Source of the DNA: an uncultured Gammaproteobacteria bacterium
GTDB taxonomy: Bacteria; Patescibacteriota; Patescibacteriia; Magasanikbacterales; GWA2-37-8
Length of the DNA stretch: 64,000 nt
Reading direction: 5' to 3'
NCBI GenBank assembly: GCA_964510885.1
Contig: CAZEDL010000001.1
Location: 212,663-276,662, forward strand
A program made the translations under genes and the position numbers. Each line of letters starts with the position of its first letter. Within the stretch, counting starts at the first letter, position 1. The notes beneath the pieces are model-generated. The model was not told the DNA's origin and ran no database searches. It worked only from the letters and a program-made list of their open reading frames with translations. Positions 2,843 to 55,113 of the stretch are shown here, piece after piece.

Positions 2843-2844
2843 AG

Positions 2845-2871
2845 TTATCACTCTAAGTATCTGAGTGATAA
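2845..2871. promoter_or_regulatory. CIRCE-like operator (TTATCACTC-N9-GAGTGATAA) of hrcA-grpE-hsp20 operon
   Basis: Perfect 9-bp inverted repeat with 9-nt spacer matching CIRCE consensus TTAGCACTC-N9-GAGTGCTAA at 7/9 positions per arm; abuts hrcA start. Confidence 0.65.
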
Positions 2872-2898
2872 GATACTACGCTCCTCTGCCCTCGTCAA
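2870..2898 (-). promoter_or_regulatory. Putative sigma70-like promoter (-35 TTGACG / 17 nt / -10 TATCTT) overlapping CIRCE
   Basis: On minus strand TTGACG(2893-2898) then a 17-nt spacer then TATCTT(2870-2875); classical CIRCE-over-promoter layout. Confidence 0.4.
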
Positions 2899-2911
2899 GG
2901 CTAACTGTGTA

Positions 2912-2940
2912 CAAAAACGAGCCAGCCAAGGGCTGACTCG
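2912..2940 (-). terminator. Hairpin + T-run terminator after SPFH gene
   Basis: minus-strand GAGTCAGCCCTTGGCTGGCTCGTTTTTGT. Confidence 0.4.
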
Positions 2941-2960
2941 TATTGATAGGCATTATTTTG

Positions 2961-3551
2961 CTAGTGGATCTGCGAAACTTCGCCAAATAAGACGTTTTCT
3001 ACAAAAATGCCGCGTGCATAGAAAATTCGTTCTAATTCATTCTTTAAATCCTGCTCTACTTCGTGGCGACGTACGGTGATGATATCTTGGTAAGCAAAGC
3101 GACTAAATACCATGCGGATGCGGCTGCGAATGGCCGGACGAACAATTTTAACTACAAAATCCTCACCAATGGTTTGCCAAATTGACGGAATCTGATGCAC
3201 ATCAAGGCGGAGCAAGATGGTTCCTTCGACCCCAACTCGTTTACCATCAATTGTTACTGCGGCAATTGGGATATCCCCCATCGCCCGTTCGTGCTGCATG
3301 TCGAATTGGCGACTGATGCCATATTCGAGCGTTTGGGTATTGAATAGTTTGGCTTTCTGCCAAAAGGGAATTTTGAGATGCAGGCCTGGAGTGAGCACTT
3401 TTTTGAGCACGCCGCGGCCAAGATCGTAGACACAGGCCACATACCCCGGCGGGACATGAATGAAGAGCCCTTTCAGAACATCATCTACGACGAATGAATA
3501 CATTAACTTATCGAGAGAATCTCCGGCCATAGAGTTGAGTGAAATTTTCAA
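2961..3551 (-). CDS. SPFH/Band-7 (stomatin/prohibitin-like) domain protein
   Basis: 196 aa; SPFH-like pattern; ORF-track start is TTG, internal ATG (MAGDSLDK) at 3530 may be true start. Confidence 0.55.
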   Translation of the reverse strand: MKISLNSMAGDSLDKLMYSFVVDDVLKGLFIHVPPGYVACVYDLGRGVLKKVLTPGLHLKIPFWQKAKLFNTQTLEYGISRQFDMQHERAMGDIPIAAVTIDGKRVGVEGTILLRLDVHQIPSIWQTIGEDFVVKIVRPAIRSRIRMVFSRFAYQDIITVRRHEVEQDLKNELERIFYARGIFVENVLFGEVSQIH

Positions 3552-3645: not shown

Positions 3646-4363
3646 AATGATGCCCACCACCATGACCATGATCTTTTTTAGGGCTAAAAAACATCTTACC
3701 AACCAGGCTAACTATATCAGAAAATACTAGGGTTGTCAAAATAAAAAGTGACTTAACCATGGGCAAAAACCACAGGAAAAAGAAGATGAACAAGGGAAAT
3801 AAAAATAGGAAAAAGAAATCTTCCTGCTCCCATTTCTTTTTGAACCCATGCTCGAGTAGCGTACTGATAAAAACATACCCGGCCACAATGCTGGCCCAGA
3901 TAGTGTCGTGGGTTTTGCCAATATCAAAGCCGTAAAAGTATTTGTTGATGGTGCCCGGAAAGTCTACGCCGCTATATAAAATTTTGATAATTTTTTCACC
4001 ACTGATACCGCGCACAAATACCTGGTAGAGCAATAAAAATACGATTACCTGCACCGCCAGAGTCAGTACTTTAGCCCAGGGCGACACCCCATGGCGGTTC
4101 ATGACACGGCGGAATTCTTGCTTCTGAATGATCGGATCGTGGGAATATTTAGCCGCGACTTGTTTGGCTTCGGCGATCAGGGTTTCTTGCTTGAGGCTGT
4201 TGCGCTCAGAGATAATGCTGAGAGGCAGCAGGGCTACGCGAAGCAATACCGTGAGCCAGATCACCGCCCAGCCCAAATTCTCGCCGGCGATGCTGTTGTA
4301 AATATAAAACAGCGCGTTGAAGAGCGGCTGATAAAAAATGGTGAACCACAGACTAGAAAACAT
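3644..4363 (-). CDS. yidC: Membrane protein insertase YidC/Oxa1 family (short form) with C-terminal His/Gly-rich tail
   Basis: 239 aa; YidC 60-kDa inner-membrane-protein core pattern; C-terminal tail KKDHGHGGGHH. Confidence 0.75.
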   Translation of the reverse strand: MFSSLWFTIFYQPLFNALFYIYNSIAGENLGWAVIWLTVLLRVALLPLSIISERNSLKQETLIAEAKQVAAKYSHDPIIQKQEFRRVMNRHGVSPWAKVLTLAVQVIVFLLLYQVFVRGISGEKIIKILYSGVDFPGTINKYFYGFDIGKTHDTIWASIVAGYVFISTLLEHGFKKKWEQEDFFFLFLFPLFIFFFLWFLPMVKSLFILTTLVFSDIVSLVGKMFFSPKKDHGHGGGHH

Positions 4364-4539
4364 ACATCAGGAGTCAGTAAAAATTATTAAGCTTAGCATA
4401 CCATAAAAAAAGTGTTGTGAAAATAAGTAAAAAATGCTACTATTAATATAGCAAATTTAATCCAAAGTCTAGGCCAACTACTAAAAAAACATTTTTTCTT
4501 GTCGATATTGGGCTGTTTATACAAATCAATAACTAGCGT

Positions 4540-4731
4540 ATGGCTGGAGAGAAATCTTCGCTAAAACAGATGACATCTTTAGTTAAAGATGCATATGCAG
4601 CTTTCGCTGAATTTATGCGTGATTTAATGTCTATAAAAAAAGCTGAAAAAGATATAATTACCGAAGCTCATCGAAGAGTTGATGCCAAAAAGTTAGCAAT
4701 CATTAAATCAAAAATTAATTCTATTGACTAA
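4540..4731 (+). CDS. Hypothetical small helical protein (63 aa)
   Basis: Stop TAA 4729-4731 is 1 nt before ATG of next gene (translational coupling). Confidence 0.35.
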   Translation: MAGEKSSLKQMTSLVKDAYAAFAEFMRDLMSIKKAEKDIITEAHRRVDAKKLAIIKSKINSID

Positions 4732-4732
4732 T

Positions 4733-6520
4733 ATGGCGAAGACACGAGAAAAATTTGTGCTCCCGGTGCCCAAAGAAAATGTAGCTGTCCACGAACGTCT
4801 ACCGCGAGAGCAGTCGACTGCTGACAGCGAGATTGCAGCTTTAGAAGAAATACACGACCGAGCTGCCCAGGAAGTAGGCGTTCTATCAGAGAAATTTGGA
4901 CGCGACATGACAGATCAGGCGTTAACAAAGACAGACAAGCTTGAAATTACCAAGTTAGAAAACCGGGCGAAAGGTTTGTTTGGAAGACTGCAATCAAGAA
5001 TTGAAGGCCTGCTTGGCAGAAAAAAAACAGCTGAAAAAAAGATTGTGATGACTAGTAGCCCGGATAGAGAGATACACTCTAGCGATCATTTGTCGGGAAG
5101 TGAGACATACCAAGAAATGGAGGCTCGAATTAACAAAGAAATTCCTGAGCACTTAACTGCAGAACAGCTTACCAGATTATCTTTACTGGTAGATTCTGAG
5201 CGATTGCTCGTAGAAAAAAAGTTTTACGAGACACCAAACTATGAGACAAAAAACGCGCTAAACAATTTGGTACAAAAGAAAATAGCTATCATGGAGAGGT
5301 TAGAGAAACTAAATAGAGAAGATCCGGAAATAAAACAGGCTGCAGAAGCCAAAAAAATTGACGATTATTTAAAGAACAGCATTCAAGCTCCACCAGAATC
5401 AAAATTGAATTATGACATGGTTTCAGATTCTGTTTTAAATAGCGACCCGCTGTTACTTTTGGGCAGATATTTTCAAGATTTAAACGAGCAGCAGGATAGC
5501 CTCAAGTATTCTAATGATTCTGACAAAAATCCAAAAAGAATGGTCATTGCAGAACGCATGGAAGAGGCAGCACGTGCCCTCGAGAAACTGCGCAAAGGAG
5601 ATCCGGTAGAGGCAGAAAAACTGGTAAAAGATAAATTCTACTATGTTTCCGGTGGGCAGCAGGGAACTGGAATAGATCGGGGCCTTGTTCTTGACAGTAT
5701 CAAGAGGCTTGTCTATCCAAAGTTAAAAAAAGATCTACAAGACAGTGGTCGCCATTTATTGGCTGATTTTCAAGCTCAAGCTGAAGCTGCGCGCCAACAA
5801 CTTAAGGGTTTTGCTCCTGAGACGCTAGATGTTAATTACAACCTTCAGCCGGTGATTAAAGCGATTAACGAACGGATAAATCACTTTACAGAAGTGTTAT
5901 CCGTGGATCAAGCAAACGGCCGTCAAGACAGAGCGGCTGATTTAACAATGGCGCTTCAGGATTTAGAAAAAAGCCGTAAGACAGCGCTGGATCTGATGGA
6001 GGCACAAAAAAAACTACCAGCCGACCTTAACAGCAAGGCAAAAAAACTTGAATCATATCAACCTATTGCGACAGATTCAAAAGAAGTTAGAGAGACATTA
6101 GCGGAAGTTGAATTAAAAAAAGATATAGCAGCTCTTGAGCAAAAGCTGGAAAAAGATATGTCCAGTCTTGAAAATTTTCTTAGCCCGGTTATGAGCGCAG
6201 CTGATTTTGATGCGTTTTTAACTAACCCTAACAAGTTCATTGCCTCAATCCTTGAATTGACACCTGAAAAAATTGCTCAAAAAATCAAGGAAGTCGGGGA
6301 AAAATATAAAACACCTAAAAAATCTGCCCCGGATAAAAACGATGAAGTGGGAAGAAAGCGATTAAGCAAAGCCAAATTAGAATATAATTTCTGGAATGTT
6401 ATACCCGAAACTGTGGAAATAATGCATTCTATCAGACAAAAACAGGAGAAACTTAAAAAGTACGAATCAGATTTGGTTAGTATCCAAAACTTTTCTAAAA
6501 ACGACAGGCTGAGTGCTTAG
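4733..6520 (+). CDS. Hypothetical large K/E-rich predicted coiled-coil protein
   Basis: ~595 aa, heptad-like K/E/L-rich composition throughout, no recognisable catalytic motif; ATG 4733. Confidence 0.5.
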   Translation: MAKTREKFVLPVPKENVAVHERLPREQSTADSEIAALEEIHDRAAQEVGVLSEKFGRDMTDQALTKTDKLEITKLENRAKGLFGRLQSRIEGLLGRKKTAEKKIVMTSSPDREIHSSDHLSGSETYQEMEARINKEIPEHLTAEQLTRLSLLVDSERLLVEKKFYETPNYETKNALNNLVQKKIAIMERLEKLNREDPEIKQAAEAKKIDDYLKNSIQAPPESKLNYDMVSDSVLNSDPLLLLGRYFQDLNEQQDSLKYSNDSDKNPKRMVIAERMEEAARALEKLRKGDPVEAEKLVKDKFYYVSGGQQGTGIDRGLVLDSIKRLVYPKLKKDLQDSGRHLLADFQAQAEAARQQLKGFAPETLDVNYNLQPVIKAINERINHFTEVLSVDQANGRQDRAADLTMALQDLEKSRKTALDLMEAQKKLPADLNSKAKKLESYQPIATDSKEVRETLAEVELKKDIAALEQKLEKDMSSLENFLSPVMSAADFDAFLTNPNKFIASILELTPEKIAQKIKEVGEKYKTPKKSAPDKNDEVGRKRLSKAKLEYNFWNVIPETVEIMHSIRQKQEKLKKYESDLVSIQNFSKNDRLSA

Positions 6521-6818: not shown

Positions 6819-7580
6819 ATGATTGAAAAAGATAAAGAAGGTTCGGGAGGAGACATTGGCCCCATGACCACACTCCCCGCTGACACCCTCGTGGTGATTG
6901 AGGCAGAGCTCCCTCCGGACGTGCCTTATGTTCCGGCAGTGGTGTTGGATCCGAACACCCGCCGAAATGAGGCGGTGTACACACCAGAGCTCCTCCGGGC
7001 AGCTGGCCTGTCTGATCCACAGGCTCCACAGCTCCCCCTGCTGAGCGAGGCAGAAGACCATCCGAAGCAGCTACAGGACTATAACGTCGATGTGTCGGAC
7101 CTCTTGGCGGAAGCTGCGGCCGGGCCCCCTCCTCAACCTGGCCCTCCGCCGCTACAACTGCCCACGACTCCACCGGCGCCACAGCGGGCATTCCCGCGCT
7201 CGCGCCTCGGTAGCGTCATCTTGGCGCTCGGTGGCGCTGCTGGCATGGCGCTCATGCTCGCCAACTGGGCCTGGACGAGCCCACCAAAGCCCCGTAGCTC
7301 GACAGATTTCGGTCTGCCGGAGGCAGTGGTGCCTGCGCCCATACCCTCCCCCGACATTCCGCGGCAGTGCCAGCACCTTCCGGCTGCGGCGCGTGGGAAA
7401 CAGTGCCCCGCAGCGACCAGGGCCATTGAGGTCGAGGTACCGGAGCCCCAGAAAAAGCGGCCGAAAAAATCGCGTCGCAAAAGAGCTACACCGCCCACCT
7501 CTCCACCCTCTGTGCCACCACCCGCTGCGGTGGTAGCGCCGCCTGAGCCCGAGCAAGCGCCTCCTCCTCCGGCCGAGTAG
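6819..7580 (+). CDS. Hypothetical proline-rich, single-TM membrane-anchored protein encoded in a high-GC islet
   Basis: ATG 6819 with AGGGAAAGGA SD; PPPQPGPPP / TPPTSPPSVPPP low-complexity segments, central hydrophobic helix (LGSVILALGGAAGMALMLANWAW), basic KKRPKKSRRKR patch; local GC far above flanks. Confidence 0.45.
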   Translation: MIEKDKEGSGGDIGPMTTLPADTLVVIEAELPPDVPYVPAVVLDPNTRRNEAVYTPELLRAAGLSDPQAPQLPLLSEAEDHPKQLQDYNVDVSDLLAEAAAGPPPQPGPPPLQLPTTPPAPQRAFPRSRLGSVILALGGAAGMALMLANWAWTSPPKPRSSTDFGLPEAVVPAPIPSPDIPRQCQHLPAAARGKQCPAATRAIEVEVPEPQKKRPKKSRRKRATPPTSPPSVPPPAAVVAPPEPEQAPPPPAE

Positions 7581-7700
7581 TCACCCCCTGCCCCACCTCC
7601 CATCTGGGACGGCCAACTGGGGCAGGCGCATCGCCCTTCCCCTCCCTGTCATTTTATCTTCGATGAGCTGACAGGTAGAAGGGTGGCGCAATTATTTAAA

Positions 7701-7737
7701 AATATCCTCCTGATTAATCAGGAGGATATTTTTTTAT
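7701..7737. terminator. Strong bidirectional terminator
   Basis: Perfect hairpin ATATCCTCCTGATT-AATC-AGGAGGATAT + T-run. Confidence 0.65.
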
Positions 7738-8039
7738 TTCTTTTCGGACGTAGACAGTATGTTTTTTACCAGAGCAAAATTTTTCTGTTCAGGAGATAGC
7801 CCATATTTGTCTTCCAATTTAGAGGCCTCTTGCAACTGTTTTTTTTTTGGGACTGGCTCGCCTGAACGTAGCGTGGCATTAAAAATGAATAGATAGTCCT
7901 CGGCGTCGCGGCTTGACCAACCGAGTTTCTGTAAGGCTTCTATACGCCTAAGGTTGGCTTCAGCCTCGCTTACTTGGATATCAAACTGGATTTGGTGTGG
8001 AATAATAAATTCACCGGGTACAGGTTTTTTGAAAGGCAT
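7734..8039 (-). CDS. Hypothetical protein (101 aa)
   Basis: ORF with coding-like composition, 2 nt from upstream EEP gene. Confidence 0.4.
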   Translation of the reverse strand: MPFKKPVPGEFIIPHQIQFDIQVSEAEANLRRIEALQKLGWSSRDAEDYLFIFNATLRSGEPVPKKKQLQEASKLEDKYGLSPEQKNFALVKNILSTSEKK

Positions 8040-33476: not shown

Positions 33477-33944
33477 TTATTTTTCTAAGCGGAAGTAACC
33501 GATGGTAAAGGGCAAGCCAGGAATCACGCGGTAGTGGATCTTGCCGAGATATTTTCCCGGAGACACTTCAACAATTTCATCAAGGATTGGCTTAATCCAG
33601 AATTGGTTGCCTGGCAATCGATAATCGATTTTAAAGGTTTGGATGCCGGCATCCCGGAACCCAGGGCCACTATAGGTGAAGAACGGATACTTGTTAATGG
33701 CTTCGGTGCCGACTGAGAAGCGGTTGTCACCCGTATTATCAGAGGGACGGAAGGTTTTGCCGAGCCAGTTGGCACGATAGAAGGTGGTGGATCCACGATA
33801 AAATCCTTCTGGGGGCGAACTCGGGAGCGTGCCCTTTAAAAATTCGGCTTGCTCGGGAGTATTTTTGCTTCTGATTGTTAAATACGACAGCACGATGACC
33901 AAAATTACTATGGCTGCCAAAATAAATTGAAGAAGTATTTTCAT
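33477..33944 (-). CDS. Hypothetical N-terminally anchored exported protein
   Basis: 155 aa, N-terminal TM/signal anchor. Confidence 0.4.
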   Translation of the reverse strand: MKILLQFILAAIVILVIVLSYLTIRSKNTPEQAEFLKGTLPSSPPEGFYRGSTTFYRANWLGKTFRPSDNTGDNRFSVGTEAINKYPFFTYSGPGFRDAGIQTFKIDYRLPGNQFWIKPILDEIVEVSPGKYLGKIHYRVIPGLPFTIGYFRLEK

Positions 33945-34017
33945 ACAATATTTAAATTGTTTGCATATATTACCATATAAATCTTAATATTGGTAGCGAT
34001 TTTAAAAAATAAAAAAA

Positions 34018-34350
34018 TCAAACGCTTTTTTTCTTACGTGGTTTCGGCGGTTTAAGATCCGCTGCGCAGGCTGCACATAAAGCATCAAAGCTTTCACCGT
34101 TTTCCAAAAATTCTGTACTCATAATATAAGCCGGTTTGGCACCCGGGTATGGCAAACCCGTCTTGTGCTTCGCACCAAGTATGCCAGTAGTCTGCGGCGT
34201 AATTTTAACAAACACCTGATTATCGCAGATCAAAGCTACGACTTTATTATTATAGTACAGTGCATATTCACCAAACATCGCTCGGATGCGGGCCACATGG
34301 CCATTAACTTGATCGAGCACGAATTCGGCAAAATCGCGGGTGGTGGCCAT
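34018..34350 (-). CDS. TfoX N-terminal domain protein
   Basis: RAMFGEYALYYNNKVVALICDNQVFVK matches TfoX_N core. Confidence 0.5.
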   Translation of the reverse strand: MATTRDFAEFVLDQVNGHVARIRAMFGEYALYYNNKVVALICDNQVFVKITPQTTGILGAKHKTGLPYPGAKPAYIMSTEFLENGESFDALCAACAADLKPPKPRKKKSV

Positions 34351-34406
34351 AGTTATAGTGATTTCAAAAATTATATACTACGACTGACATACCAGAATAA
34401 ATGCTG

Positions 34407-34865
34407 CTATTTTTTGCTCGAAACCGTTTGATCGATATGACCCACCTTCTTAGCGATCGCATGCACATCGGTGTGAATTTCCTCTAGCGCTTCGCTTTCC
34501 GAAACAATTTCGGCCTCGGTTTTTTCTACTAATTTTTTCTGTCCACGCAAACCAGAAATAATAATTTCATTACCAATAAAATTAGAAACAAATAAACCCG
34601 TAGACAGGGTAATTATAGTGCCGATAAGTAACGATACCGGCCCATCCCACCACGGAAAAACGGCTTGACCAAGAGCAGTCGGAGCGAAAAAACATTCCAT
34701 GATCAGATCTACGGTATTCCAAGCACCGCGCCAAAAAACCACTACCCCAAACCCGCCAATAAACGCATATACGATCGGCCGACGGCTGCACCAGCCACGA
34801 ACTTTATCTTCAAATTTATCACCCCAACGGTATATTTTTTTGAACATATTCGGTTGATTTATCAA
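34407..34865 (-). CDS. Hypothetical membrane protein
   Basis: 152 aa, 2-3 TM. Confidence 0.4.
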   Translation of the reverse strand: MINQPNMFKKIYRWGDKFEDKVRGWCSRRPIVYAFIGGFGVVVFWRGAWNTVDLIMECFFAPTALGQAVFPWWDGPVSLLIGTIITLSTGLFVSNFIGNEIIISGLRGQKKLVEKTEAEIVSESEALEEIHTDVHAIAKKVGHIDQTVSSKK

Positions 34866-35167: not shown

Positions 35168-35184
35168 TGTAGCCCGTACGGGAA
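35168..35184. repeat. Partial (17-bp) third copy of the tRNA-Glu att core
   Basis: TGTAGCCCGTACGGGAA identical to first 17 nt of the 24-bp repeat; diverges after. Confidence 0.55.
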
Positions 35185-35342
35185 ATCTTGTGCGTCGTCG
35201 CTACGCTCCTCCTACACAAAAACCTTCGGGTTTTCGTGGGCTTTCCTCCCCAGGTAAAAAACTCCATTTCTTACCATCTTGCGTGCGATTCAGTGGATCA
35301 AAAAACAAATAAAATACTCCCTTATTAAGGGAGTATTTTATT

Positions 35343-35366
35343 TGTAGCCCGTACGGGAATCGCACC
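35343..35366. repeat. Left att direct repeat (24 bp) of integrative element
   Basis: TGTAGCCCGTACGGGAATCGCACC identical to 42063-42086. Confidence 0.7.
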
Positions 35367-35568
35367 AACTCAAGCAAATTCTGAATTTTCCTACGGTTGA
35401 GCAATTATACGCTGACGTTAGCTAAAAGTCTAATTCTCATTCGTTCTCAAGTATCCGCATCCGTACTCCCCTTTCATCACTTTTTGGCCACAGGGTGGAC
35501 ACAAACTTTTAAGATGTTCAACGGCAACACAGAGAAAGTGATATTGCGGGGAAACCCGTATAGAAAAT

Positions 35569-36228
35569 TTATGGTAGAGGAAGGTTCTTGTCCTTCTTTC
35601 CAAAAAGGACGTAAATAAAGGCTTTATAGTAAAAAAGTAAGCCTCCGGCCACTAATCCTACCCAAGTTAAAACAGAAAATAAAATTGTTTGTATATAAAA
35701 AATGTAATTTCTCTGATACTTAACTATGTCTTGATATTCACAATTATTTCGATCATCTTTATTGATAAGACAAACCAAACTTTTCTCCTTGATTGTATTG
35801 ATAACATAAGTTTTCAAAAACTCCCTTTCTTTTCCTTGGTTATCATAATAATTAGGAATAATTACAGGCAACACCGAATCAAGAGAACTCAAAATATCTT
35901 TATTGCAATAACTATCTTTAGAAAGACTATACTCCGAAAGCCACTTATAATTATTTGCTGGTTTATCAAGGCATCCTAGCTCACCTTTTGTAGCCAAAAA
36001 ATCAGGCAATACATTGGTGGAGCTATCTACACTCTTGGTATATTCATTAAGATTTGAAATAATCTTAGTATTTGAAGGTTTTAATTGTAATAAGAAATAG
36101 TACGAAATCGGTATTAGAACTATTAGTAAGGAAATAATAAGAAAGAAAACCACCTTAAATAGCCTGTGCCACCATTTAGAATTTAAGTTTAAGTCTGGGC
36201 GAAAAAAATTATTATATCTTTGCTTCAT
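35569..36228 (-). CDS. Hypothetical membrane protein (island cargo)
   Basis: 219 aa, TM near N-term and C-term. Confidence 0.4.
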   Translation of the reverse strand: MKQRYNNFFRPDLNLNSKWWHRLFKVVFFLIISLLIVLIPISYYFLLQLKPSNTKIISNLNEYTKSVDSSTNVLPDFLATKGELGCLDKPANNYKWLSEYSLSKDSYCNKDILSSLDSVLPVIIPNYYDNQGKEREFLKTYVINTIKEKSLVCLINKDDRNNCEYQDIVKYQRNYIFYIQTILFSVLTWVGLVAGGLLFYYKAFIYVLFGKKDKNLPLP

Positions 36229-36305
36229 AATATTAAAAAAATTAACGCCTCACCTTTTCACTTTCGTAAACTTGCTTAAAATATTTCCTAGTTTTCATGT
36301 TATTT

Positions 36306-36665
36306 TTATCTAAATTTTTCTACCTCATTATCATAATCCGACCTTGTATCAACCGCTTTTATTTCTTTTCCTTCTAAAATGTCCTTCAGTACAAAGGATG
36401 TATAGACTTTTTCCTTGCCATTAAAATCGGCATGTGTGACTCTGGCTAAACCTTCTAAACACGTATCCAGCTTTGTGCTGTAAAAAATTTCCAACAGAGA
36501 AAGGTTGTTATAGGGAGAATTTTCAGTGTTATACTTTTCGATATTTTGTTTTTCAGTAGAAATATAGTTTGAACATTCAAGTTTTTTCTGAAAACTAATA
36601 TCATTTTTTGCACAACCCGCACCTATCATTAGAAAAATGATCAAGAAAAAACCTATTTTTCTCAT
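36306..36665 (-). CDS. Hypothetical lipoprotein (island cargo)
   Basis: Signal peptide + lipobox IGAGC. Confidence 0.45.
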   Translation of the reverse strand: MRKIGFFLIIFLMIGAGCAKNDISFQKKLECSNYISTEKQNIEKYNTENSPYNNLSLLEIFYSTKLDTCLEGLARVTHADFNGKEKVYTSFVLKDILEGKEIKAVDTRSDYDNEVEKFR

Positions 36666-36679
36666 AAATTATTGTTAAT

Positions 36680-37288
36680 TTATCTAAAAGTACTAGTAAC
36701 GGTACTTGAACTACTCAGACCCGTGTCTGTATTAAGCACACTAGTAACAGGGGCTATTTTTTTAGAAGTCGGATGTAGAAAACTTAAAAGGCTTCCCCAA
36801 TTAAACACCACCGCAATAACCAGAACAGCAAGAAGAGTGAAAAAACCTACTATAAAAAAGCTGTTAATTTTTTTTGTAATGGCAGAAAAGGCAATTTTTG
36901 TTGTTGGTAATTGTGCTTTATAAAAAGCATACACTAAGACTAAAAATCCTAAGTAGCCTAAATATCTTTTTAAACTAGACATTTGTCCAAATGCGCTGAT
37001 AATAATATAACCAACCAAACTAACAAGCATTGTTGTAAAAGGAAGTTTTTCTTCAAGATGGGCTAATAAACTAGGGACGTATTGGATACCATAATTGTCA
37101 CCGCCACCCAGCCCTTTCCTACTAGTCCAGTCATCTGACGAAGTACCCCCACCGCTCTTAGTGCCACCCTCTTGATTAACTGAATTAGGTTGCCCAAAAC
37201 TACTGATATCCTCAAAATTATCAGTATCTATAGAAACTCCGGTTGGTTTTTCGTTCGTATTCCTAGAATCAACCGCTCCGTTATTCAT
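36680..37288 (-). CDS. Hypothetical membrane protein with Gly/Ser-rich N-terminal region (island cargo)
   Basis: 202 aa; GGTKSGGGTSSDD low-complexity then 3-4 TM. Confidence 0.4.
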   Translation of the reverse strand: MNNGAVDSRNTNEKPTGVSIDTDNFEDISSFGQPNSVNQEGGTKSGGGTSSDDWTSRKGLGGGDNYGIQYVPSLLAHLEEKLPFTTMLVSLVGYIIISAFGQMSSLKRYLGYLGFLVLVYAFYKAQLPTTKIAFSAITKKINSFFIVGFFTLLAVLVIAVVFNWGSLLSFLHPTSKKIAPVTSVLNTDTGLSSSSTVTSTFR

Positions 37289-38003
37289 AGAAATATGTCA
37301 AAAAACCATTGTGTATTTCTTCGATTGCATTCACATTTGATTTACACAGGTTTAGTAATTGATCCGGATCCAAGACCATCTCTTTATTTTGATAGAAATC
37401 AATGCTACAAAAAGTGCCACAGTCACGCTTGAAATTTTCCGGATAAATCTTTTTATTTTCAAAAAACCGAGTAAAAGCCTCTTCTGCAGAAACAGGGCCG
37501 GTTTGAAAATTATACTTACCTTCAGATCGTTCGCAATCATTAAAGGTATAACCAAAATCTAATATTTTTGAATTAGTATAAGTTTCAAATGAGGCATAAT
37601 TTTTAAACATTTTTTCTTTATACCTTGTTTTTATATTCTCAAGGTTATCTGCGCTTCTATAGTTCAAAACCAAGGACTTTGTGCCGACCCGTATTAAAGA
37701 CTTGATGGGGTATTTATCAAATTTTCTTAAAATTCTAAATAAATCATCAATTTTATTACGAAACTCGCCAAAATCAGGAGAAGCTTCAATTTGAAGACCA
37801 AAATTTTCTAAACTAAAAAAAAGAAACTCTGAAAAATCTTCAGTAGCAACATCCACTCGATCGTTTGCCATTCTTATTTTTGTAAACTCTGAATTTCTAG
37901 ATATTAAATACTCCGCCATCTCGCCTTTAAAATCTATGAAAGAAAATTTTCTATTCTTTAATCGAATTTCTAGAAGATGCCTAATTATTTTTGTATCCGA
38001 CAT
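37281..38003 (-). CDS. Hypothetical protein (island cargo)
   Basis: 240 aa soluble, no recognised motif. Confidence 0.4.
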   Translation of the reverse strand: MSDTKIIRHLLEIRLKNRKFSFIDFKGEMAEYLISRNSEFTKIRMANDRVDVATEDFSEFLFFSLENFGLQIEASPDFGEFRNKIDDLFRILRKFDKYPIKSLIRVGTKSLVLNYRSADNLENIKTRYKEKMFKNYASFETYTNSKILDFGYTFNDCERSEGKYNFQTGPVSAEEAFTRFFENKKIYPENFKRDCGTFCSIDFYQNKEMVLDPDQLLNLCKSNVNAIEEIHNGFLTYFYE

Positions 38004-38129
38004 AATAGTAAATTCTATTTTAGAATAGAAATTAAAGCCTTGAATTTTAGAAATTTAAAATTTGTGTATAGGCTAATTTTGCTATACTATAGCAGAAAAT
38101 CAATATTTTACAAGCAAAATCCTCCCACT

Positions 38130-39242
38130 ATGCCCTCCCCTAACCCTCAAGTCGTCACCGCCATAGATACAGGTAAAATGTTAGAAAGACTACATTCTTC
38201 AACACAGACAACCGAGCAGAATTTTCTTCCTACGTTATTTGACTATCTAGAGTATATAGTTAAGAATCCAAAAACTAAGGCTCTGCTTCAGGAATTAGAA
38301 AAATCCCGAACAGATGCCTATAGCAGCTACTTTGAGCTTAAATCGAAGTCAAAAAAAGAACTTGAGAAATCAAAAAAAATACTCTTAGGAGCAGTCGCTA
38401 AAAATAAAATACAGAATCCTCAGCTAAAAGAGCGTACTGAAAACTGGAAACGTTATGAAAAAGGTGAAATAAGTAGCAACGCACTTTATGAGCACCGATT
38501 AGAAAGCTTTCTAATCGATATCTTCGATATTCTTTTTAAAGAGGGGTGCGGATCACTAATTGAGCCTTTATTTCCCAAAAATAACTATGGAAATTTGATT
38601 TTTTCTCCCTCTTTAGCCTTGTTTAAGAGAGAAAGTGAAAGGATAGACGAATTAAGAGATATTGAAATGTGGCATTGTTGGTATTCATTAAAATTTGTAC
38701 CCGAAATATCTAAACAAACTTTTGGCGATATAATGCACTCTCAAGGCCATTTAACTCACGAAGAGATCGGCTATTATTTTGACGCCTTACGTTTTAGGCA
38801 AGAGGGGCGAAAAGAAAAATCCAAGGATTATGAAGAGGATTTGCCAAAATATAAGGGCTATTTGAATCGACTGCACAACTATCTTGTTCAAAGATTGGAC
38901 GAAAGTAAAACCATTCCACTAGAGCAACCAATGACCCACAAGCTCAACTTTTTTCCAGCAGACGGAACAGCTCAATACAGAGGATCCAGCTATATATTCG
39001 CCTCAGGAACCAAAGGGCATGAATTATTAAACTTCTTATTTAACTCAAAAAATACCCCTTTAGAATTGCGCTACTTTCAAGAGCGATGTAACGAGAAAAT
39101 CAGGATCGGAAGGAATAAATTTAAAACAGACAAAGATATTTTAGACACGGTTAACCATATTAAAAAAAGACTGAAAGTGAATAAGAGTGAATACTTTCCT
39201 ATTTTTAAAACCGAAAAATGCTTTATTTGGGAGGAAAAATAG
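38130..39242 (+). CDS. Hypothetical protein (island cargo)
   Basis: start set at ATG 38130 (track ORF starts earlier and overlaps the divergent gene); terminator at 39300-39328. Confidence 0.4.
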   Translation: MPSPNPQVVTAIDTGKMLERLHSSTQTTEQNFLPTLFDYLEYIVKNPKTKALLQELEKSRTDAYSSYFELKSKSKKELEKSKKILLGAVAKNKIQNPQLKERTENWKRYEKGEISSNALYEHRLESFLIDIFDILFKEGCGSLIEPLFPKNNYGNLIFSPSLALFKRESERIDELRDIEMWHCWYSLKFVPEISKQTFGDIMHSQGHLTHEEIGYYFDALRFRQEGRKEKSKDYEEDLPKYKGYLNRLHNYLVQRLDESKTIPLEQPMTHKLNFFPADGTAQYRGSSYIFASGTKGHELLNFLFNSKNTPLELRYFQERCNEKIRIGRNKFKTDKDILDTVNHIKKRLKVNKSEYFPIFKTEKCFIWEEK

Positions 39243-39375
39243 CATTCACTCGGTTCACTTCATTCATCCACATAGAGAAGCAAAGAAAAACCCCATAGAA
39301 TCGTAGTATCAGACACTACGATTTTTTATTTAATACTTGGTTGCAAATCGCTGTTTTTCTTATCTGGCTTTTCCT

Positions 39376-39429
39376 GGGAGGGTTAGGCCGGAAGGTAAGC
39401 AGCGACTTGTTACCAATAACCCTCCCATG
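39376..39429 (+). promoter_or_regulatory. RBS-sequestering hairpin (GGGAGGGTTA…TAACCCTCCC) directly before start codon
   Basis: Perfect 10-bp inverted repeat, 31-nt spacer, 3' arm ends at ATG 39427. Confidence 0.45.
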
Positions 39430-40695
39430 GATACCGTCCGTCTAAAATTTAGCCATTACCTACCCAAAACTTCCTTTTTTAAGGATAAAGTTTTAAGTAA
39501 GGTTTTAGCCTTAGAATCAGGCGCAGGTAAGCGTTATATCTTCACCAACAACGAATGGCGTAAGCAGCGCCAAGCGCAAGGTTTGTATACTCCTAAATAC
39601 TGGATTGAGGAGGATGTTGTAATACCCTCAAATACTTTCTTCTATATCGAGTGCTCTCTGCCCAAGCTGCACTGGGGACAAAATATAACCGAACCAACAG
39701 ATACCGATTTAGAGCCTATAGTCGCCTCTCTAAGAGCTTTTTTGAGAGAAATTGAGGTATATGTCAGTACGGGTCAAATCCTCAACGCTACCCCTACTCT
39801 TGTAGCAGTAGGAAAGAATATTGATCTCACCCGTTTCTGCTCCGTCGACTTAACTCTAAAAGCACTTAGCCCTTTTGACTTCAAGCCAAAAACTAAGCAT
39901 CGGTTTATTGATTTTTTGGATTGTGAGCATGGGGGCAGGCAGATAATTTTTTCCAAAAAAGAAGAAACGCTTAAGCTCTACAACAAACTATCTGAAGTAG
40001 CCAATAATGCTATTACCGATAAAGAAAAAGCTGTAAGGCAGGCCGTTGAGAAGCAGCGTTACCGCTCAGAAGCTATCTATGTCAACGAAATGCTTAGAAC
40101 AGAGCTAACACTTAAAACAAGACGAAAGATAGAGAATAGATTTAAAAAGTACCTGCCTACTGGCCAAGAGGTGAATTTTCAAAATCTCTTCAAAAAATCA
40201 ATTTGGGATAAATTGCTAGCCGAAGAAATAGCGACCGTATATATGCACCCACTACGGCATTTTGTTTTTCTAGCACAAGAAAATAAGCCAATTATTGAGG
40301 CTTTCTTGGACAAAAACCACAAGCATATCGAGACGAAAGATACGGTAATGGGAATTATTGGCTCTTTACAGGAATATGGCCTAGCTCAAACCCGCCAGAG
40401 ATACTTGGCAAAATACGACAGCAGACAGACTTGGTACAACTATCTAAAACGGTTTAAAAAAATTGATGAAGCATACGATTTTAGTTCGCTGGCTAACTCT
40501 GATAATTACAAAATTTACTGCCATATTCTTGGACAATTTGGCTTAGATACTGCCGCCCAAGCTAGTTTTGATTTCGATACATTGTCTAAAAAACTAGACA
40601 GCGAGCAGTGTAATACTAATTGTGATAAACTAACAGCGACCAAGGCGGCTAGTCCGTCTTCTGTGTTGCTCTCTGACAATTTATATGGATGCTGA
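39427..40695 (+). CDS. Hypothetical protein; possible rolling-circle replication initiator (weak Rep_trans-like N-terminus)
   Basis: N-terminal DTVRLKFS resembles iDwLrfTf start of replication-initiation-factor family; otherwise unassigned. Confidence 0.3.
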   Translation: MDTVRLKFSHYLPKTSFFKDKVLSKVLALESGAGKRYIFTNNEWRKQRQAQGLYTPKYWIEEDVVIPSNTFFYIECSLPKLHWGQNITEPTDTDLEPIVASLRAFLREIEVYVSTGQILNATPTLVAVGKNIDLTRFCSVDLTLKALSPFDFKPKTKHRFIDFLDCEHGGRQIIFSKKEETLKLYNKLSEVANNAITDKEKAVRQAVEKQRYRSEAIYVNEMLRTELTLKTRRKIENRFKKYLPTGQEVNFQNLFKKSIWDKLLAEEIATVYMHPLRHFVFLAQENKPIIEAFLDKNHKHIETKDTVMGIIGSLQEYGLAQTRQRYLAKYDSRQTWYNYLKRFKKIDEAYDFSSLANSDNYKIYCHILGQFGLDTAAQASFDFDTLSKKLDSEQCNTNCDKLTATKAASPSSVLLSDNLYGC

Positions 40696-40921
40696 TTGTA
40701 CCCCACAATCCAAGCTCCGCTTTCTAACACCGCCAGAGGTGGCTGCTTTTCTGTGTATTTCCAAAGCCACTGTCTACCGCTTTATTGAGAAGCGAACCCT
40801 CCCCTTCTACAAAATCGGCGGATCAATCCGGTTTAAAGAAAGCGACGTTTTGGACTATATCGAACAGTGTCGGGTACAAACAGCTACAGAACTATATGAG
40901 CACACTAAAACGAGGAAATAA
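40685..40921 (+). CDS. Excisionase/AlpA-like helix-turn-helix DNA-binding protein
   Basis: LTPPEVAAFLCISKATVYRFIEKRTLPFYKIGGSIRF HTH_17 pattern; overlaps int start. Confidence 0.6.
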   Translation: MDADCTPQSKLRFLTPPEVAAFLCISKATVYRFIEKRTLPFYKIGGSIRFKESDVLDYIEQCRVQTATELYEHTKTRK

Positions 40922-42026
40922 CTGGTATATCGATTTCTGGTTTGACCGTATCCGATACCGTAAGCGTAGCCCTGACAATAGCAAAGCAGGGGCAGAGGCT
41001 TACGAAGTACTGCTACGCCAGAAACTAGCTCACGGAGAGCCGATTATAGAGGTTAAAGAGGTTGCTAAAAACATCCCCACCTTTGCAATCTTCTCTCAAG
41101 AGTGGCTAGCGTCGTACGTTCAGAACAATAATAAGTATTCCGAAGCTGAAAATAAACGCTCCGCCCTGAACTATAACCTTATCCCCTTTTTCGGGAAACT
41201 TCCTTTAGATCAGATTGCTACCCGTAACGTAGAGGAATACAAAGCTGCCAAGATTAAGGCTGGACTAAAAAACAAGAGCATCAACAATCATTTGTCTTGC
41301 CTCAGAAAATGCCTGACTACAGCTCAAGAATGGGAAATGCTCGAACATGTGCCAAAGATAAAGCTACTTAAAGTACCACCGCCAGAAACTAAATTCCTAA
41401 ACCAAGCAGAATGCGAACGGTTGCTCAAAGTGGCCACAAACAACTGGTACGACATGATTTTTACCGTCATGCGTACCGGCATGCGATTTGGCGAACTTGT
41501 TGCCCTGAAATGGTCGGATATAGACTTCAACGGAAGAATTATTACCATCCAACGAAGTATAGCCCGTGGAAAAATGGGCAGCACCAAAAGCAACAAAATC
41601 AGAAAAATCCCACTGGCTAGCGACCTATCAAGTCTGCTAGATAGAAAAAGAAGGAACGGAGTATTCGTTTTTGCGGATGGACAAGGGAATCTTCCTAAGC
41701 AGGACTTCTGTCGCAGCCACTTACTACGCCTAGCAGAAAAGGCCGATGTTGAACTTATTGGGTGGCACACTTTACGCCATACCTTCGCCTCGCATCTAGC
41801 TAATAACGGGGTAGCTGTTCATGTCATCCAGCAACTACTTGGACACTCCGACATTAAGACCACGATGCGCTACTCGCATATCGCTCCTACGACGCTGGTG
41901 AACGCAATTAGCGTACTTGAAAACAGCTCTCCACTGTTTTGGACACAGGATGGACACAAGCAAGAAAATTCTGAAATCGGACAGCTCTTCAAAACTTTTT
42001 CTTCGACTCGTATTTTCGCTCAATAA
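40896..42026 (+). CDS. Tyrosine-type site-specific integrase
   Basis: N-terminal arm-binding-like WYIDFWFDRIRYRKRS; C-terminal catalytic R…HTLRHTFAS…H…RY (LGHSDIKTTMRYSHI). Confidence 0.85.
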   Translation: MSTLKRGNNWYIDFWFDRIRYRKRSPDNSKAGAEAYEVLLRQKLAHGEPIIEVKEVAKNIPTFAIFSQEWLASYVQNNNKYSEAENKRSALNYNLIPFFGKLPLDQIATRNVEEYKAAKIKAGLKNKSINNHLSCLRKCLTTAQEWEMLEHVPKIKLLKVPPPETKFLNQAECERLLKVATNNWYDMIFTVMRTGMRFGELVALKWSDIDFNGRIITIQRSIARGKMGSTKSNKIRKIPLASDLSSLLDRKRRNGVFVFADGQGNLPKQDFCRSHLLRLAEKADVELIGWHTLRHTFASHLANNGVAVHVIQQLLGHSDIKTTMRYSHIAPTTLVNAISVLENSSPLFWTQDGHKQENSEIGQLFKTFSSTRIFAQ

Positions 42027-42030
42027 CGCA

Positions 42031-42055
42031 AAAAACAGAGTTGTCTCTGTTTTTA
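42031..42055 (+). terminator. Terminator after integrase
   Basis: ACAGAG-TTGT-CTCTGT hairpin + TTTT. Confidence 0.5.
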
Positions 42056-42062
42056 AATCGCG

Positions 42063-42086
42063 TGTAGCCCGTACGGGAATCGCACC
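42063..42086. repeat. Right att direct repeat (24 bp) overlapping 3' end of tRNA-Glu
   Basis: Identical to 35343-35366. Confidence 0.7.
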
Positions 42087-42136
42087 CGTCTTTGAGCCGT
42101 GAGAGGGCCCTGTCCTAACTGATAGACGAACGGGCC
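42065..42136 (-). tRNA. tRNA-Glu (anticodon CTC)
   Basis: Hand-folded: acceptor GGCCCGT/ACGGGCT (one G-U), U8, D-arm TTCGTCTA… like bacterial tRNA-Glu, anticodon loop CTCTCAC, 4-nt variable loop, T-arm ACGGG-TGCGATT-CCCGT (unusual G at position 55), discriminator A. Confidence 0.65.
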
Positions 42137-52750: not shown

Positions 52751-53737
52751 TTATATGTACTTTTGATACATAATTTCAGCTGTTTTCATATTTTTCTTTA
52801 TACCGAGACCAAAATTAAAAAAATTTTCTGGAATTGGATTAAGAGGATTTTCATGGTAGGCAAACAAAAACTCGTTGCCGATTCCGCTCCATGAACTATG
52901 TCCGATTGAATAGCCGGAGTACAATACTGCACTAATTTTTGAAAAATCATTCATTACCATAGGCTCAGTTTTAATTTCTTCAACTAAATTGTCTTTCGTA
53001 GTCCTTTTAACTGGCCGTGCTGACAGGTAACCTCTTTGTAAGCCCCTTTGGTTTGGAATTTTAGTATAAGATTCAAGACCTCTCGCAAACATTGCCCTCT
53101 CGAAGAGTGCCTGGTCATCTGAATACTGTTGAATGTCTGCGCCACTAATCGCAATCACCAAACAATCGTTATCCCTTATTCCTATTTTGACATTTTCTAT
53201 ATCGAGACAAAATTTTTTAAATTTTTTATAGAATGCGCTTGTTATGCGTAACACCCGATTATGCTGCATCTCTTCTATGTCATATTGATTTGCCCCAAGT
53301 GAATATGGCTTAACACGAACGTCACCGTCACTACATGCAATCGCTTCAATCCACACCTTTTTTCCATTGGGGGCTTCAATACAGAAATCAGGACCATCAT
53401 CTTGTGTTTTATTTAGCAGCCTAAAACCCTTATTTACCAAAATAGTAGCTAAATAAAATTCCCAGGCTCTCTTACTATGAGAGTCTTCTGCTTGGAATGC
53501 TTTTAAGAAATTTTTATCTAAGTAATTGCAAACGTTGGGCCAATTTTTTTCATACCATTTTCTGTCATTTTGCCAACCTGAATATAAAGCTGTCTGAATG
53601 AATCTCTTAGAATAGCTAGGGTACTCTTGGAACGCAGCGTCTAATTCTTTTTGATTTTTTACACTACCTGAAATTAAATAATCAGGAAATATTTTTAAGA
53701 GTTTTTTAGCCATAGCTACATATGTCATCAATTTCAA
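52751..53737 (-). CDS. Hypothetical protein (328 aa)
   Basis: No recognised domain; possible PD…E nuclease-like segment GPDFCIEAP…VWIEAI is unconvincing. Confidence 0.4.
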   Translation of the reverse strand: MKLMTYVAMAKKLLKIFPDYLISGSVKNQKELDAAFQEYPSYSKRFIQTALYSGWQNDRKWYEKNWPNVCNYLDKNFLKAFQAEDSHSKRAWEFYLATILVNKGFRLLNKTQDDGPDFCIEAPNGKKVWIEAIACSDGDVRVKPYSLGANQYDIEEMQHNRVLRITSAFYKKFKKFCLDIENVKIGIRDNDCLVIAISGADIQQYSDDQALFERAMFARGLESYTKIPNQRGLQRGYLSARPVKRTTKDNLVEEIKTEPMVMNDFSKISAVLYSGYSIGHSSWSGIGNEFLFAYHENPLNPIPENFFNFGLGIKKNMKTAEIMYQKYI

Positions 53738-53907
53738 AATAAAAATATTTTTTTGATTATCTCATTAAAATATGAAAAACAAAATCAAATTTTTTTAAGA
53801 ACTTGGACGATAACGCAATTATATTAAAAACTTGAATAATATACAAATTTTTGCTAAGATAAGCGCTCCATAGGACACTCTATGGAAACGAACTAAATAC
53901 AGATGCA

Positions 53908-55113
53908 ATGTGCCCGCTAGACAAAATAAAGTCCAATTTCCCAATTTTTAAGAACCACCCCGAGTTGGTCTATCTTGATAGTGCCGCGACAACCCAAACC
54001 CCGGAGGCTGTTCTAGCTGCAATGACCGATTATTACACGAAATACCGCGCTAATACGCAGCGCGGCCTGTATGCGCTTAGCGAAACGGCCACGACTGCCT
54101 ACGAACAAGCTCGGGCTGATATTGCAACCTTTATTGGAGCAGAGACGAATGAAGTTGTATTCACCGGAGGGGCTACGCACGGGCTGAATTTACTTGCTTC
54201 ACAACTCGGCAAAAAATTAACCAAAAATGATTCAATTGTACTAACGCGCCTAGAGCATCATGCCAATCTTATCCCGTGGCAACAGGTGGCTAAACGCACC
54301 GGGGCTGAACTTCGATTTATCAATATCACTAAACAGGGCGAAATTGATCTGCAGAGTGCCTATGAAGCGATTGATGAAACCACCAAAATTGTCAGTGTGA
54401 CTGGGTTATCGAACGCACTCGGTACCATTGCCCCACTTAAAGAAATCATAGCCATTGCTAAAGAATCCGAGGCGATTACAATTGTTGACGCCTCGCAATT
54501 AGTTGGCCACTCCCCTACTAACGTGCGTGAACTTGATTGTGATTTCTTGGTATTTTCCGGACATAAGGTATATGGGCCGACGGGCATCGGAGTGCTCTAT
54601 GGGAAAACTGAACGCTTGGATGCTTTGGAACCCTGGATGTTCGGTGGTGAAATGATTGAAGATGTTAGTTACACCACCGCCAGCTGGACTGAGGCGCCAC
54701 ATAAATTTGAAGCGGGGACGCAAAATATTGCCGGAGCGATTGGGCTCGGGGCAGCCGTTAGATTCCTATCTGAGATTGGGCTCGAACATATTCAGAAGCA
54801 TGAAGCAGAGATTACGGCTTATGCGCTCGAACAATTAGCTGCAGAAGCGGTGATCATTGGCCCCCCTACTGCCGCAGCCCGTGGATCGATTGTGTCGTTT
54901 ATTGTCCCTGGCATTCACCCACATGATTTGGCGGAGCTGCTCGGCAGAGAACATATGGCCGTCAGAGCCGGGCACCATTGCGCCAAGCCGCTGATGAAAT
55001 ATTTAGATGTCCCGGGTACGGTGCGCGCGTCGTTTGGGATGTATTCGAGCCAGGAAGATGTTGATCGATTGATTGCGGGGATTAAAAAAGCTAAGCAAGT
55101 GTTTAGAGTATAA
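53908..55113 (+). CDS. sufS: Cysteine desulfurase SufS (class V aminotransferase)
   Basis: PLP-lysine region FSGHKVYGPTGIGVLYG; catalytic Cys region RAGHHCA. Confidence 0.85.
   Translation: MCPLDKIKSNFPIFKNHPELVYLDSAATTQTPEAVLAAMTDYYTKYRANTQRGLYALSETATTAYEQARADIATFIGAETNEVVFTGGATHGLNLLASQLGKKLTKNDSIVLTRLEHHANLIPWQQVAKRTGAELRFINITKQGEIDLQSAYEAIDETTKIVSVTGLSNALGTIAPLKEIIAIAKESEAITIVDASQLVGHSPTNVRELDCDFLVFSGHKVYGPTGIGVLYGKTERLDALEPWMFGGEMIEDVSYTTASWTEAPHKFEAGTQNIAGAIGLGAAVRFLSEIGLEHIQKHEAEITAYALEQLAAEAVIIGPPTAAARGSIVSFIVPGIHPHDLAELLGREHMAVRAGHHCAKPLMKYLDVPGTVRASFGMYSSQEDVDRLIAGIKKAKQVFRV

Follow-up and report, generated by a model that had tools for sequence, protein, structure and literature searches.

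What is the role of the five uncharacterized genes, here denoted A to E, that occupy positions 35569-39242 of a 64,000-nucleotide (nt) window of the bacterial contig CAZEDL010000001.1 (the window being the whole stretch of DNA that was analyzed), and do these genes belong together? A preliminary description of this DNA, made without database searches, presented the four minus-strand genes A-D and the divergent gene E as the cargo of a small integrative element and interpreted the block as a tight envelope-directed operon, with superinfection exclusion, surface modification or host interaction as possible functions. The analysis reported here delineates the element and shows that the block is composite: it consists of a gene of the element backbone (E), a two-gene cassette (D-C), and the envelope genes B and A, both orphans. 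For the D-C cassette, we see about an even chance that it is an undescribed defense or abortive-infection cassette that is associated with restriction-modification (R-M) systems and employs a membrane effector.

The list of open reading frames (ORFs) contains all five genes at the positions given in Table 1, that is, four in a row on the minus strand and the divergent gene for a protein of 370 amino acids (aa). Within 2.4 kb of DNA with a G+C content (GC) of ~32%, four ORFs reach 119 aa or more, compared with 0.04 expected from 1000 first-order Markov randomizations. The minus-strand genes are tightly spaced, with 77 nt between A and B, 14 nt between B and C, and an 8-nt overlap between C and D; a terminator-like hairpin follows E, and an inverted repeat in the divergent D/E control region could be an operator. 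The products of A, B, C, E and the next gene of the element, F (422 aa), are identical to gene products in an NCBI record, all of them unnamed and each alone in its 90%-identity cluster; the exact 240-aa sequence of D is not on record but a 212-aa version (P0001) is. Searches of Pfam, NCBIfam, PHROGs and PADLOC yielded no significant match for any of A-E. At the level of the individual genes, the preliminary description is largely borne out, namely with regard to the gene arrangement, the terminator-like hairpin after E, the lack of a recognizable family, the three membrane or envelope products, the combination of a Gly/Ser-rich N-terminal region and transmembrane (TM) segments in C, and the soluble 240-aa product of D, for which hydropathy gives no TM segment. 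The product of A, which had been described as a polytopic membrane protein, is indeed a membrane protein but with two, possibly three, TM segments by hydropathy, and thus not a heavily polytopic one.

The conservation of D and C delineates the cassette. A word-indexed search recovered eight relatives of D, and an exhaustive profile search (E ≤ 1e-3) recovered 283 representatives at 50% identity; among the matches listed, almost all are 210-260 aa long, and the sources seem to be mostly groundwater and candidate-phyla metagenomes. In subfamily 1, a homolog of C, identified with BLAST, directly follows D in 11 of the 11 distinct contexts; at the junction, the two genes overlap by up to 11 nt or are separated by up to 4 nt, and the similarity of the D proteins co-varies with that of the C proteins (r = 0.93), as co-inheritance would give. 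By contrast with this constancy, no homologs of A, B, E or F were detected in any D-bearing locus that was fetched. By these comparisons, D-C is an autonomous, translationally coupled and co-evolving pair. Subfamily 2, sampled in 44 metagenome loci, is homologous to subfamily 1 (hhalign 99.9%, E 7e-31), and in nearly all of its loci with downstream DNA, the gene after D encodes 150-212 aa and its product has a long charged tail, one to three TM segments and, sometimes, a coiled coil. These membrane partners show no sequence relationship to C; because non-homologous proteins of similar build occupy the same position, what stays constant in the family is the combination of D with a tail-anchored membrane protein of small size. 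The 309-318 aa neighbors found at several D loci were considered as a third conserved gene and rejected, given the lack of homology among them.

Scans of IMG/VR detected neither F nor D of either subfamily, and tblastn searches of phages and/or plasmids with F, D and two D proteins from subfamily 2 gave no match. PADLOC, applied to 70 members of the D family, produced scattered single matches only. The D-C family is not represented in Pfam, PHROGs or PADLOC v2, no literature on D-C was found, and, so far as our tools could show, its association with R-M systems is undescribed; keyword searches for publications on gene insertions into Type III R-M operons or on defense proteins resembling the TATA-binding protein (TBP) returned nothing relevant.

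The genomic context of the D-C relatives provides a clue to a function. By our count, about 14 of the ~24 distinct neighborhoods sampled, all found by pattern-limited scans, are linked to R-M genes. In Type III systems, the full gene order is Mod-D-C-Res (loci L005-8, L019 and L020), and in two further cases (L010 and L011/12) Mod-D-C is followed by the end of the contig before or within the next gene. A Type I locus has the order HsdM...HsdS-D-C-HsdR (L022), and in a Type II locus, a methyltransferase (MTase) and a MutH-like restriction endonuclease precede D and C (L021). The contexts of subfamily 2 include IIG-like N6_Mtase/Eco57I/TaqI_C enzymes (L026 and relatives), N4/N6 MTases together with a 268-aa or an HNH protein (L030, L041 and L034), a C5 MTase (L043), a nearby SNF2/PLD protein (L028) and an MTase downstream of the pair (L040). 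One Type III lineage has kept its four-gene order while the identity of Mod falls to 52% and that of D to 66%, and L020 represents a second Type III system that is only remotely related to this lineage. Other copies of the pair reside on serine-recombinase or tyrosine-integrase islands (L001 and L063), with recombinases also found near L026, L028, L029 and L034; one locus has a Bro-N neighbor. The copy in the window is a stand-alone, mobile element-borne pair which, unlike the R-M-linked relatives, is neither inside nor beside an R-M operon.

These observations change the interpretation of the block as a unit. The co-occurrence check that had been proposed for the five genes separates them: E belongs to the backbone (see below), D-C travels without A, B and E, and homologs of A and B were not found. 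What remains of the single envelope-directed operon is the tight co-directional packing; its functional unity is not supported, with D-C mostly found in R-M operons elsewhere. For D-C, this location points to intracellular anti-phage defense with a membrane effector rather than to the suggested role in surface modification.

Several features of the R-M-linked loci deserve separate mention. Among L025-L038, D proteins that are at least 85% identical stand behind at least five different upstream genes, namely those for a IIG MTase with a 172- or 246-aa protein, a 275-aa MTase, a 268-aa protein, an HNH protein and a Mod fragment; the presence of such similar D proteins behind different genes implies recent shuffling of the pair among R-M contexts. 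Just upstream of the D pair in L041 (positions 3740-5194) lies the gene for a 484-aa fusion protein that combines a LexA DNA-binding domain, an S24 peptidase and an N6_N4 DNA methyltransferase, and in L020 a separate LexA-like gene (2518-3135) lies directly upstream of Mod; the presence of these LexA-type genes suggests SOS-linked control of the R-M/D-C operons. In addition, the D-C-bearing Type III lineage has a conserved ORF of ~100 aa immediately before Mod (5875-6183 in L019; also in L005, L006, L008, L010 and L011); this ORF may encode a controller protein.

Structure prediction offers some insight into the soluble component. The AlphaFold2 model of D, built from a 16-sequence alignment, scores highly (pLDDT 91.3, pTM 0.89) and displays the order of secondary structure elements S1-H1-S2-S3-S4-S5-H2 repeated twice, so that D is predicted to be a TBP-like pseudo-dimer with a 10-stranded antiparallel sheet. 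A search of the structural library BFVD gave only low-TM (template modeling score) matches, to TBP-like or amidoligase folds; a PDB sequence search with the D profile found no match. An alignment of 70 diverse family members shows no variation at E12, R105, G107 and D202 and hardly any at R14, D24, G27, G69, D149 and G169; invariance in one or more of the family alignments is seen for, among others, E12, D24, R49, R105, D149 and D202. Conserved residues recur at i/i+2 positions of strands (E12/R14, R49/D51 and R105/G107/K109), and D149 and D202 likewise belong to the conserved residues that alternate along strands; the conserved, mostly charged set probably lies on a single face of the sheet, where it would form a site for ligand binding or catalysis. 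The nearest named family is NCBIfam TIGR04255, which resembles D in size (~230-270 aa) and is related to it in sequence; no function is attached to TIGR04255, and we found no mention of it in the literature. This model matches 3 of the 70 D-family members (best E 4e-8) and misses the other 67, and D from the window has no NCBIfam match at E ≤ 1; the D family is therefore a distant sister of TIGR04255 rather than a part of it.

The partner C, a small inner-membrane protein, begins with a variable, disordered tail of ~80 aa, which in the window protein includes the Gly/Ser-rich residues 41-53 (GGTKSGGGTSSDD) and which is followed, in the alignment of 11 homologs, by a conserved LEExLPFT segment. 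Two TM segments, 82-106 and 144-162, exceed the hydropathy threshold, and a third one between them (~108-126) was recognized in the sequence with the help of the family alignment. G93-Y94...F100-G101 in TM1 and K124 after TM2 are invariant among the 11 homologs, which share no common Pfam family. The 80-residue N-terminal tail lacking a signal peptide and the Lys-rich loop between TM2 and TM3 point to an N-in topology, with the tail probably in the cytoplasm.

In contrast to D-C, gene E is part of the element itself. The E protein is soluble (no TM segment by hydropathy), contains a strongly conserved C-terminal segment of ~100 aa, and has no match among PDB sequences or in the family libraries; F similarly has no PDB match in a profile search. 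Only two relatives of E exist among 5.8 billion proteins, with 48% and 46% identity, and in both loci (L014 and L017) E is followed by a homolog of F that is 45% identical to the window protein, an ORF of 55-59 aa and a 509-aa large serine recombinase. Because this gene order recurs in both relatives, E has to be regarded as backbone and not as cargo, and E-F as the conserved core of integrative elements that form a rare family and in which the recombinase has been exchanged: compared with positions 38130-42026 of the window, the serine recombinase of L014 and L017 replaces the excisionase and the tyrosine integrase on a conserved backbone. In L017, the slot divergent from E carries a 762-aa HSDR_N+N6_Mtase enzyme; the same slot is occupied by A-D in the window and behaves as a cargo position for defense genes, which upholds the earlier designation of A-D as cargo.

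The small integrative element that was originally postulated is well defined: 6.7 kb of low-GC DNA inserted at a tRNA-Glu gene between identical 24-nt repeats (Table 1). It displays both hallmarks of tRNA-integrating tyrosine-recombinase elements, a PF00589 integrase beside a tRNA gene and repeats that duplicate the 3' end of the tRNA. The whole-window Rfam scan at the gathering threshold passes over the tRNA-Glu; this is a filter artifact rather than a defect of the tRNA. The GC of the element is 37% compared with 46% in the remainder of the window, with a dip from ~0.46 to 0.31-0.41 across 35-42 kb and values of 0.32, 0.41 and 0.46 for the cargo, the backbone and the host DNA, respectively. 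The genes that flank the element (MurF, FtsI, TypA, an RND pump and RibB) indicate an ordinary diderm chromosome. Pfam domains in the eight ORFs of the element are limited to HTH_17 and Phage_integrase; no methyltransferase, restriction endonuclease, helicase, relaxase or transfer domain was detected among them. The Walker A motif ([AG]xxxxGK[ST]) is absent from all six frames of 35343-42086, and therefore the element lacks a P-loop ATPase for packaging, assembly or transfer, which makes self-transfer unlikely.

As a type, then, the element is an ordinary tRNA-integrating island, whereas its E-F backbone is rare. It shares with other islands of this kind the integrase, the excisionase, the Rep-like gene, the attachment-site (att) repeats that copy the tRNA 3' end and a low-GC slot with defense genes; it differs from them in that the E-F backbone has two known relatives, both using a large serine recombinase, and in that no P-loop ATPase motif and no relaxase or transfer domain were detected. 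This analysis defines a small, rare element family that combines an E-Rep backbone, a swap between tyrosine and serine recombinases, and a cargo slot for defense genes.

Table 1. Features of the integrative element and of its target site in the window
Feature	Position	Strand	Description	Evidence or remark
attL	35343-35366	.	24-nt direct repeat TGTAGCCCGTACGGGAATCGCACC; displaced copy of the tRNA-Glu 3' end	24/24 nt match to 42063-42086
A	35569-36228	-	Orphan membrane protein, 219 aa	ORF list, hydropathy
B	36306-36665	-	Orphan lipoprotein-like protein, 119 aa	ORF list, hydropathy
C	36680-37288	-	Membrane partner of D, 202 aa	Alignment of 11 homologs, hydropathy
D	37281-38003	-	Soluble protein, 240 aa; predicted TBP-like pseudo-dimer	ORF list, AlphaFold2 model, family alignments
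Inverted repeat	37948-38031	.	22 nt, 86% complementary, 40 nt between the arms	Lies across the start codon of D, within the divergent D/E control region
E	38130-39242	+	Soluble protein, 370 aa	ORF list; ORF 37977-39242, product called from 38130
Terminator-like hairpin with T run	39297-39325	+	Downstream of E	Candidate terminator
F	39427-40695	+	Putative replication initiator, 422 aa	Weak match to PHROG 702 'replication protein', E 1.1e-5
G	40685-40921	+	HTH_17 excisionase-like protein	Pfam, PHROGs
H	40896-42026	+	Tyrosine integrase; ORF opens at 40785, likely start MSTLKRG at 40896	PF00589 4e-31; phrog_1 2e-68
attR	42063-42086	-	24-nt direct repeat	Overlaps the 3' end of tRNA-Glu(CTC)
tRNA-Glu(CTC)	42065-42136	-	Integration target	ARAGORN; Rfam local scan, 47 bits

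Additional repeats were observed at the borders of the element. A third, degenerate (71%) copy of the att/tRNA 3'-end repeat at 35168-35191, 175 bp beyond attL, may be the scar of an earlier integration into the same tRNA gene. Directly adjoining attL, at 35305-35345, lies an inverted repeat of 20 bp without mismatches, accompanied by a minus-strand T run; it is most simply explained as the original terminator of the tRNA-Glu gene, moved 6.7 kb by the insertion. Two 23-nt direct repeats that are 91% identical (TTTTGGMCACAGGRTGGACACAA; 35482-35504 and 41937-41959) lie ~105-115 bp internal to each att site and are candidate arm-type binding sites for the integrase. Just outside attL, at 33477-34865, there are three small genes (155, 110 and 152 aa; local GC 0.41), none of which matches NCBIfam; the sequences of the first and third products look membrane-associated. 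Elsewhere in the window, GC drops to 0.35 at 53001-54000, around a 328-aa minus-strand ORF (52751-53737), and rises to 0.58 at 7-8 kb (7001-8000).

The remaining cargo genes, A and B, are orphans. The A protein has an N-terminal TM segment at 23-41 and a hydrophobic C-terminal stretch at 176-208, apparently a hairpin, separated by a loop of ~130 aa with four Cys residues (86, 108, 153 and 163); its basic termini are suggestive of an N-in/C-in topology. B starts with a putative signal peptide (MRKIGFFLIIFLMIGAGC...) that ends in IGAGC (Cys18), and contains two more Cys residues. When its lipobox-like sequence (...FLMIGAGC) is compared with [LVI][ASTVI][GAS]C, positions -1 and -2 fit whereas -3, as read from the sequence, is an atypical Gly. 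No relatives of A were detected by scan or tblastn in IMG/VR viral contigs, phages, plasmids, the fetched loci or elsewhere in the window, and tblastn with B found no match in phages, plasmids, the fetched loci or the rest of the window; this includes all fetched loci that carry D or E. The lipobox-like signal peptide of B and the four-Cys loop between the TM segments of A suggest that both are extracytoplasmic proteins, and for these two genes superinfection exclusion is a reasonable guess.

Under the reading of D-C as a defense cassette, D would be the cytoplasmic component that detects an infection cue, possibly the failure or inhibition of restriction, and then releases or activates C; the latter would act as the effector that compromises membrane integrity and thereby aborts the infection, with the translational coupling of the two genes setting their stoichiometry. 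The repeated insertion of the pair beside a restriction subunit suggests, by analogy, a second-layer role in backing up or guarding restriction. A bolder version, according to which the D family with its interchangeable small membrane partners is an undescribed, widespread anti-phage system found in every class of R-M operons, where a TBP-fold guard with an enzyme-like charged site would sense the inhibition or failure of restriction and fire a membrane effector, seems rather doubtful. A number of points weigh against a defense function. The element in the window encodes no methyltransferase or restriction domain detectable with Pfam, and some relatives are located among housekeeping genes (L036 and L049). 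There is no consistent PADLOC match in the D-C family, and with no relative in the phage, plasmid or IMG/VR collections, the context that usually supports such an assignment is gone. The R-M linkage also fits an addiction or stabilization role, and the sample of contexts, those ~24 neighborhoods, is limited. Finally, for every member of the family, whatever is said here about function is what we infer.

Alternatively, D-C could be a toxin-antitoxin-like module, with C as the membrane toxin and D as its neutralizer, that stabilizes elements and R-M operons by post-segregational killing without any sensing of phage. The neutralizer gene would come first, in tight translational coupling, as it does here, and the pair is found on integrase and serine-recombinase islands, in R-M operons, which are selfish modules themselves, and also alone in chromosomes. 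However, D, with 240 aa and invariant charged residues reminiscent of a ligand-binding or active site, would be an unusual antitoxin, and in subfamily 2 it is the membrane partner that is swapped for non-homologous proteins of similar build, so that D rather than the 'toxin' is constant. We therefore consider a pure addiction module unlikely; in any case, many toxin-antitoxin-like modules act in abortive infection, and to this extent the two explanations overlap. A role of D-C as a restriction accessory, which would tether or regulate a restriction subunit at the membrane or delay restriction in a new host, appears very unlikely. It would account for the position of the pair directly upstream of Res or HsdR within the same operon, in both Type III and Type I systems, and for the long co-inheritance of this arrangement in one Type III lineage, but a dedicated subunit is not expected to be so promiscuous as to join unrelated R-M types (I, II, IIG, III and C5), nor to occur with no R-M genes nearby, as it does in the window among other places.

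Two further explanations start from the element rather than from the pair. The original proposal, that the four minus-strand genes form one envelope-directed operon for superinfection exclusion or surface modification, has in its favor their co-directional, tight packing and the three envelope products, of which A and B have Cys-containing extracytoplasmic domains; A and B are also fast-evolving orphans, as are often the exclusion lipoproteins and Sie proteins of prophages. Still, A and B are absent from the more than 20 other contexts of D-C, where the pair sits in R-M operons and not beside envelope genes, a promoter-like site precedes A, and there is no homology to the PHROG exclusion families; all told, a joint function of the four genes seems quite improbable. 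The small size of the element (6.7 kb), the match of F to PHROG 702 and the presence of several small membrane proteins, including C with a Gly/Ser-rich segment that recalls pIII linkers, might also suggest an integrated filamentous (inovirus-like) prophage, with A, B and C serving in its coat or its assembly. This candidate was rejected as largely refuted and retains next to no probability: without a Walker A motif in any frame, there is no pI/Zot-like assembly ATPase, D-C homologs occur in R-M operons devoid of phage genes, and relatives are missing both from IMG/VR (A, D of both subfamilies, and F) and from tblastn searches of phages (A, B, D and F). For annotation, the consequence is that the 'operon' of five genes is not to be propagated as one unit.

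If D-C is indeed a defense cassette, it adds a new pair of protein families to the class of systems that combine a soluble sensor with a membrane effector. In phage lambda, RexB is thought to depolarize the membrane after RexA senses infection. As in D-C, the gene for a soluble protein (279 aa in RexA, 240 aa in D) precedes that for a small membrane protein of polytopic type (144 aa in RexB, ~150-200 aa in C), and the cassette is carried by an integrated mobile element; there is, however, no sequence or structural homology between the two systems. Kiwa (KwaA/KwaB) and other systems with a sensor and a TM effector similarly join a membrane protein and a soluble partner in a compact operon, but the gene order of Kiwa is the reverse, the predicted TBP-like fold of D belongs to another fold family, and PADLOC detects no KwaA/KwaB match for C or D, nor does it do so consistently over the 70 members of the D family. 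A parallel in genomic placement is provided by PrrC and Ronin, abortive-infection effectors that are linked to R-M genes; RonA, a small TM protein, is restrained by HsdMS and freed by anti-restriction proteins (bioRxiv 10.1101/2023.04.06.535777). PrrC in EcoprrI and RonA with HsdMS resemble the D-C relatives in being extra genes inside, or tightly linked to, an R-M operon, but no homology to D-C was detected (no PADLOC match), PrrC is a soluble anticodon nuclease, and RonA is encoded by a single gene (61 aa) that has no D-like partner. D-C joins all types of R-M systems and also occurs without them, as in the window; should its role be confirmed, D-C would be a second-layer module for all R-M types and would take the idea of guarded restriction, embodied by PrrC and Ronin, well past Escherichia coli, for example, to Peregrinibacteria and Berkelbacteria.

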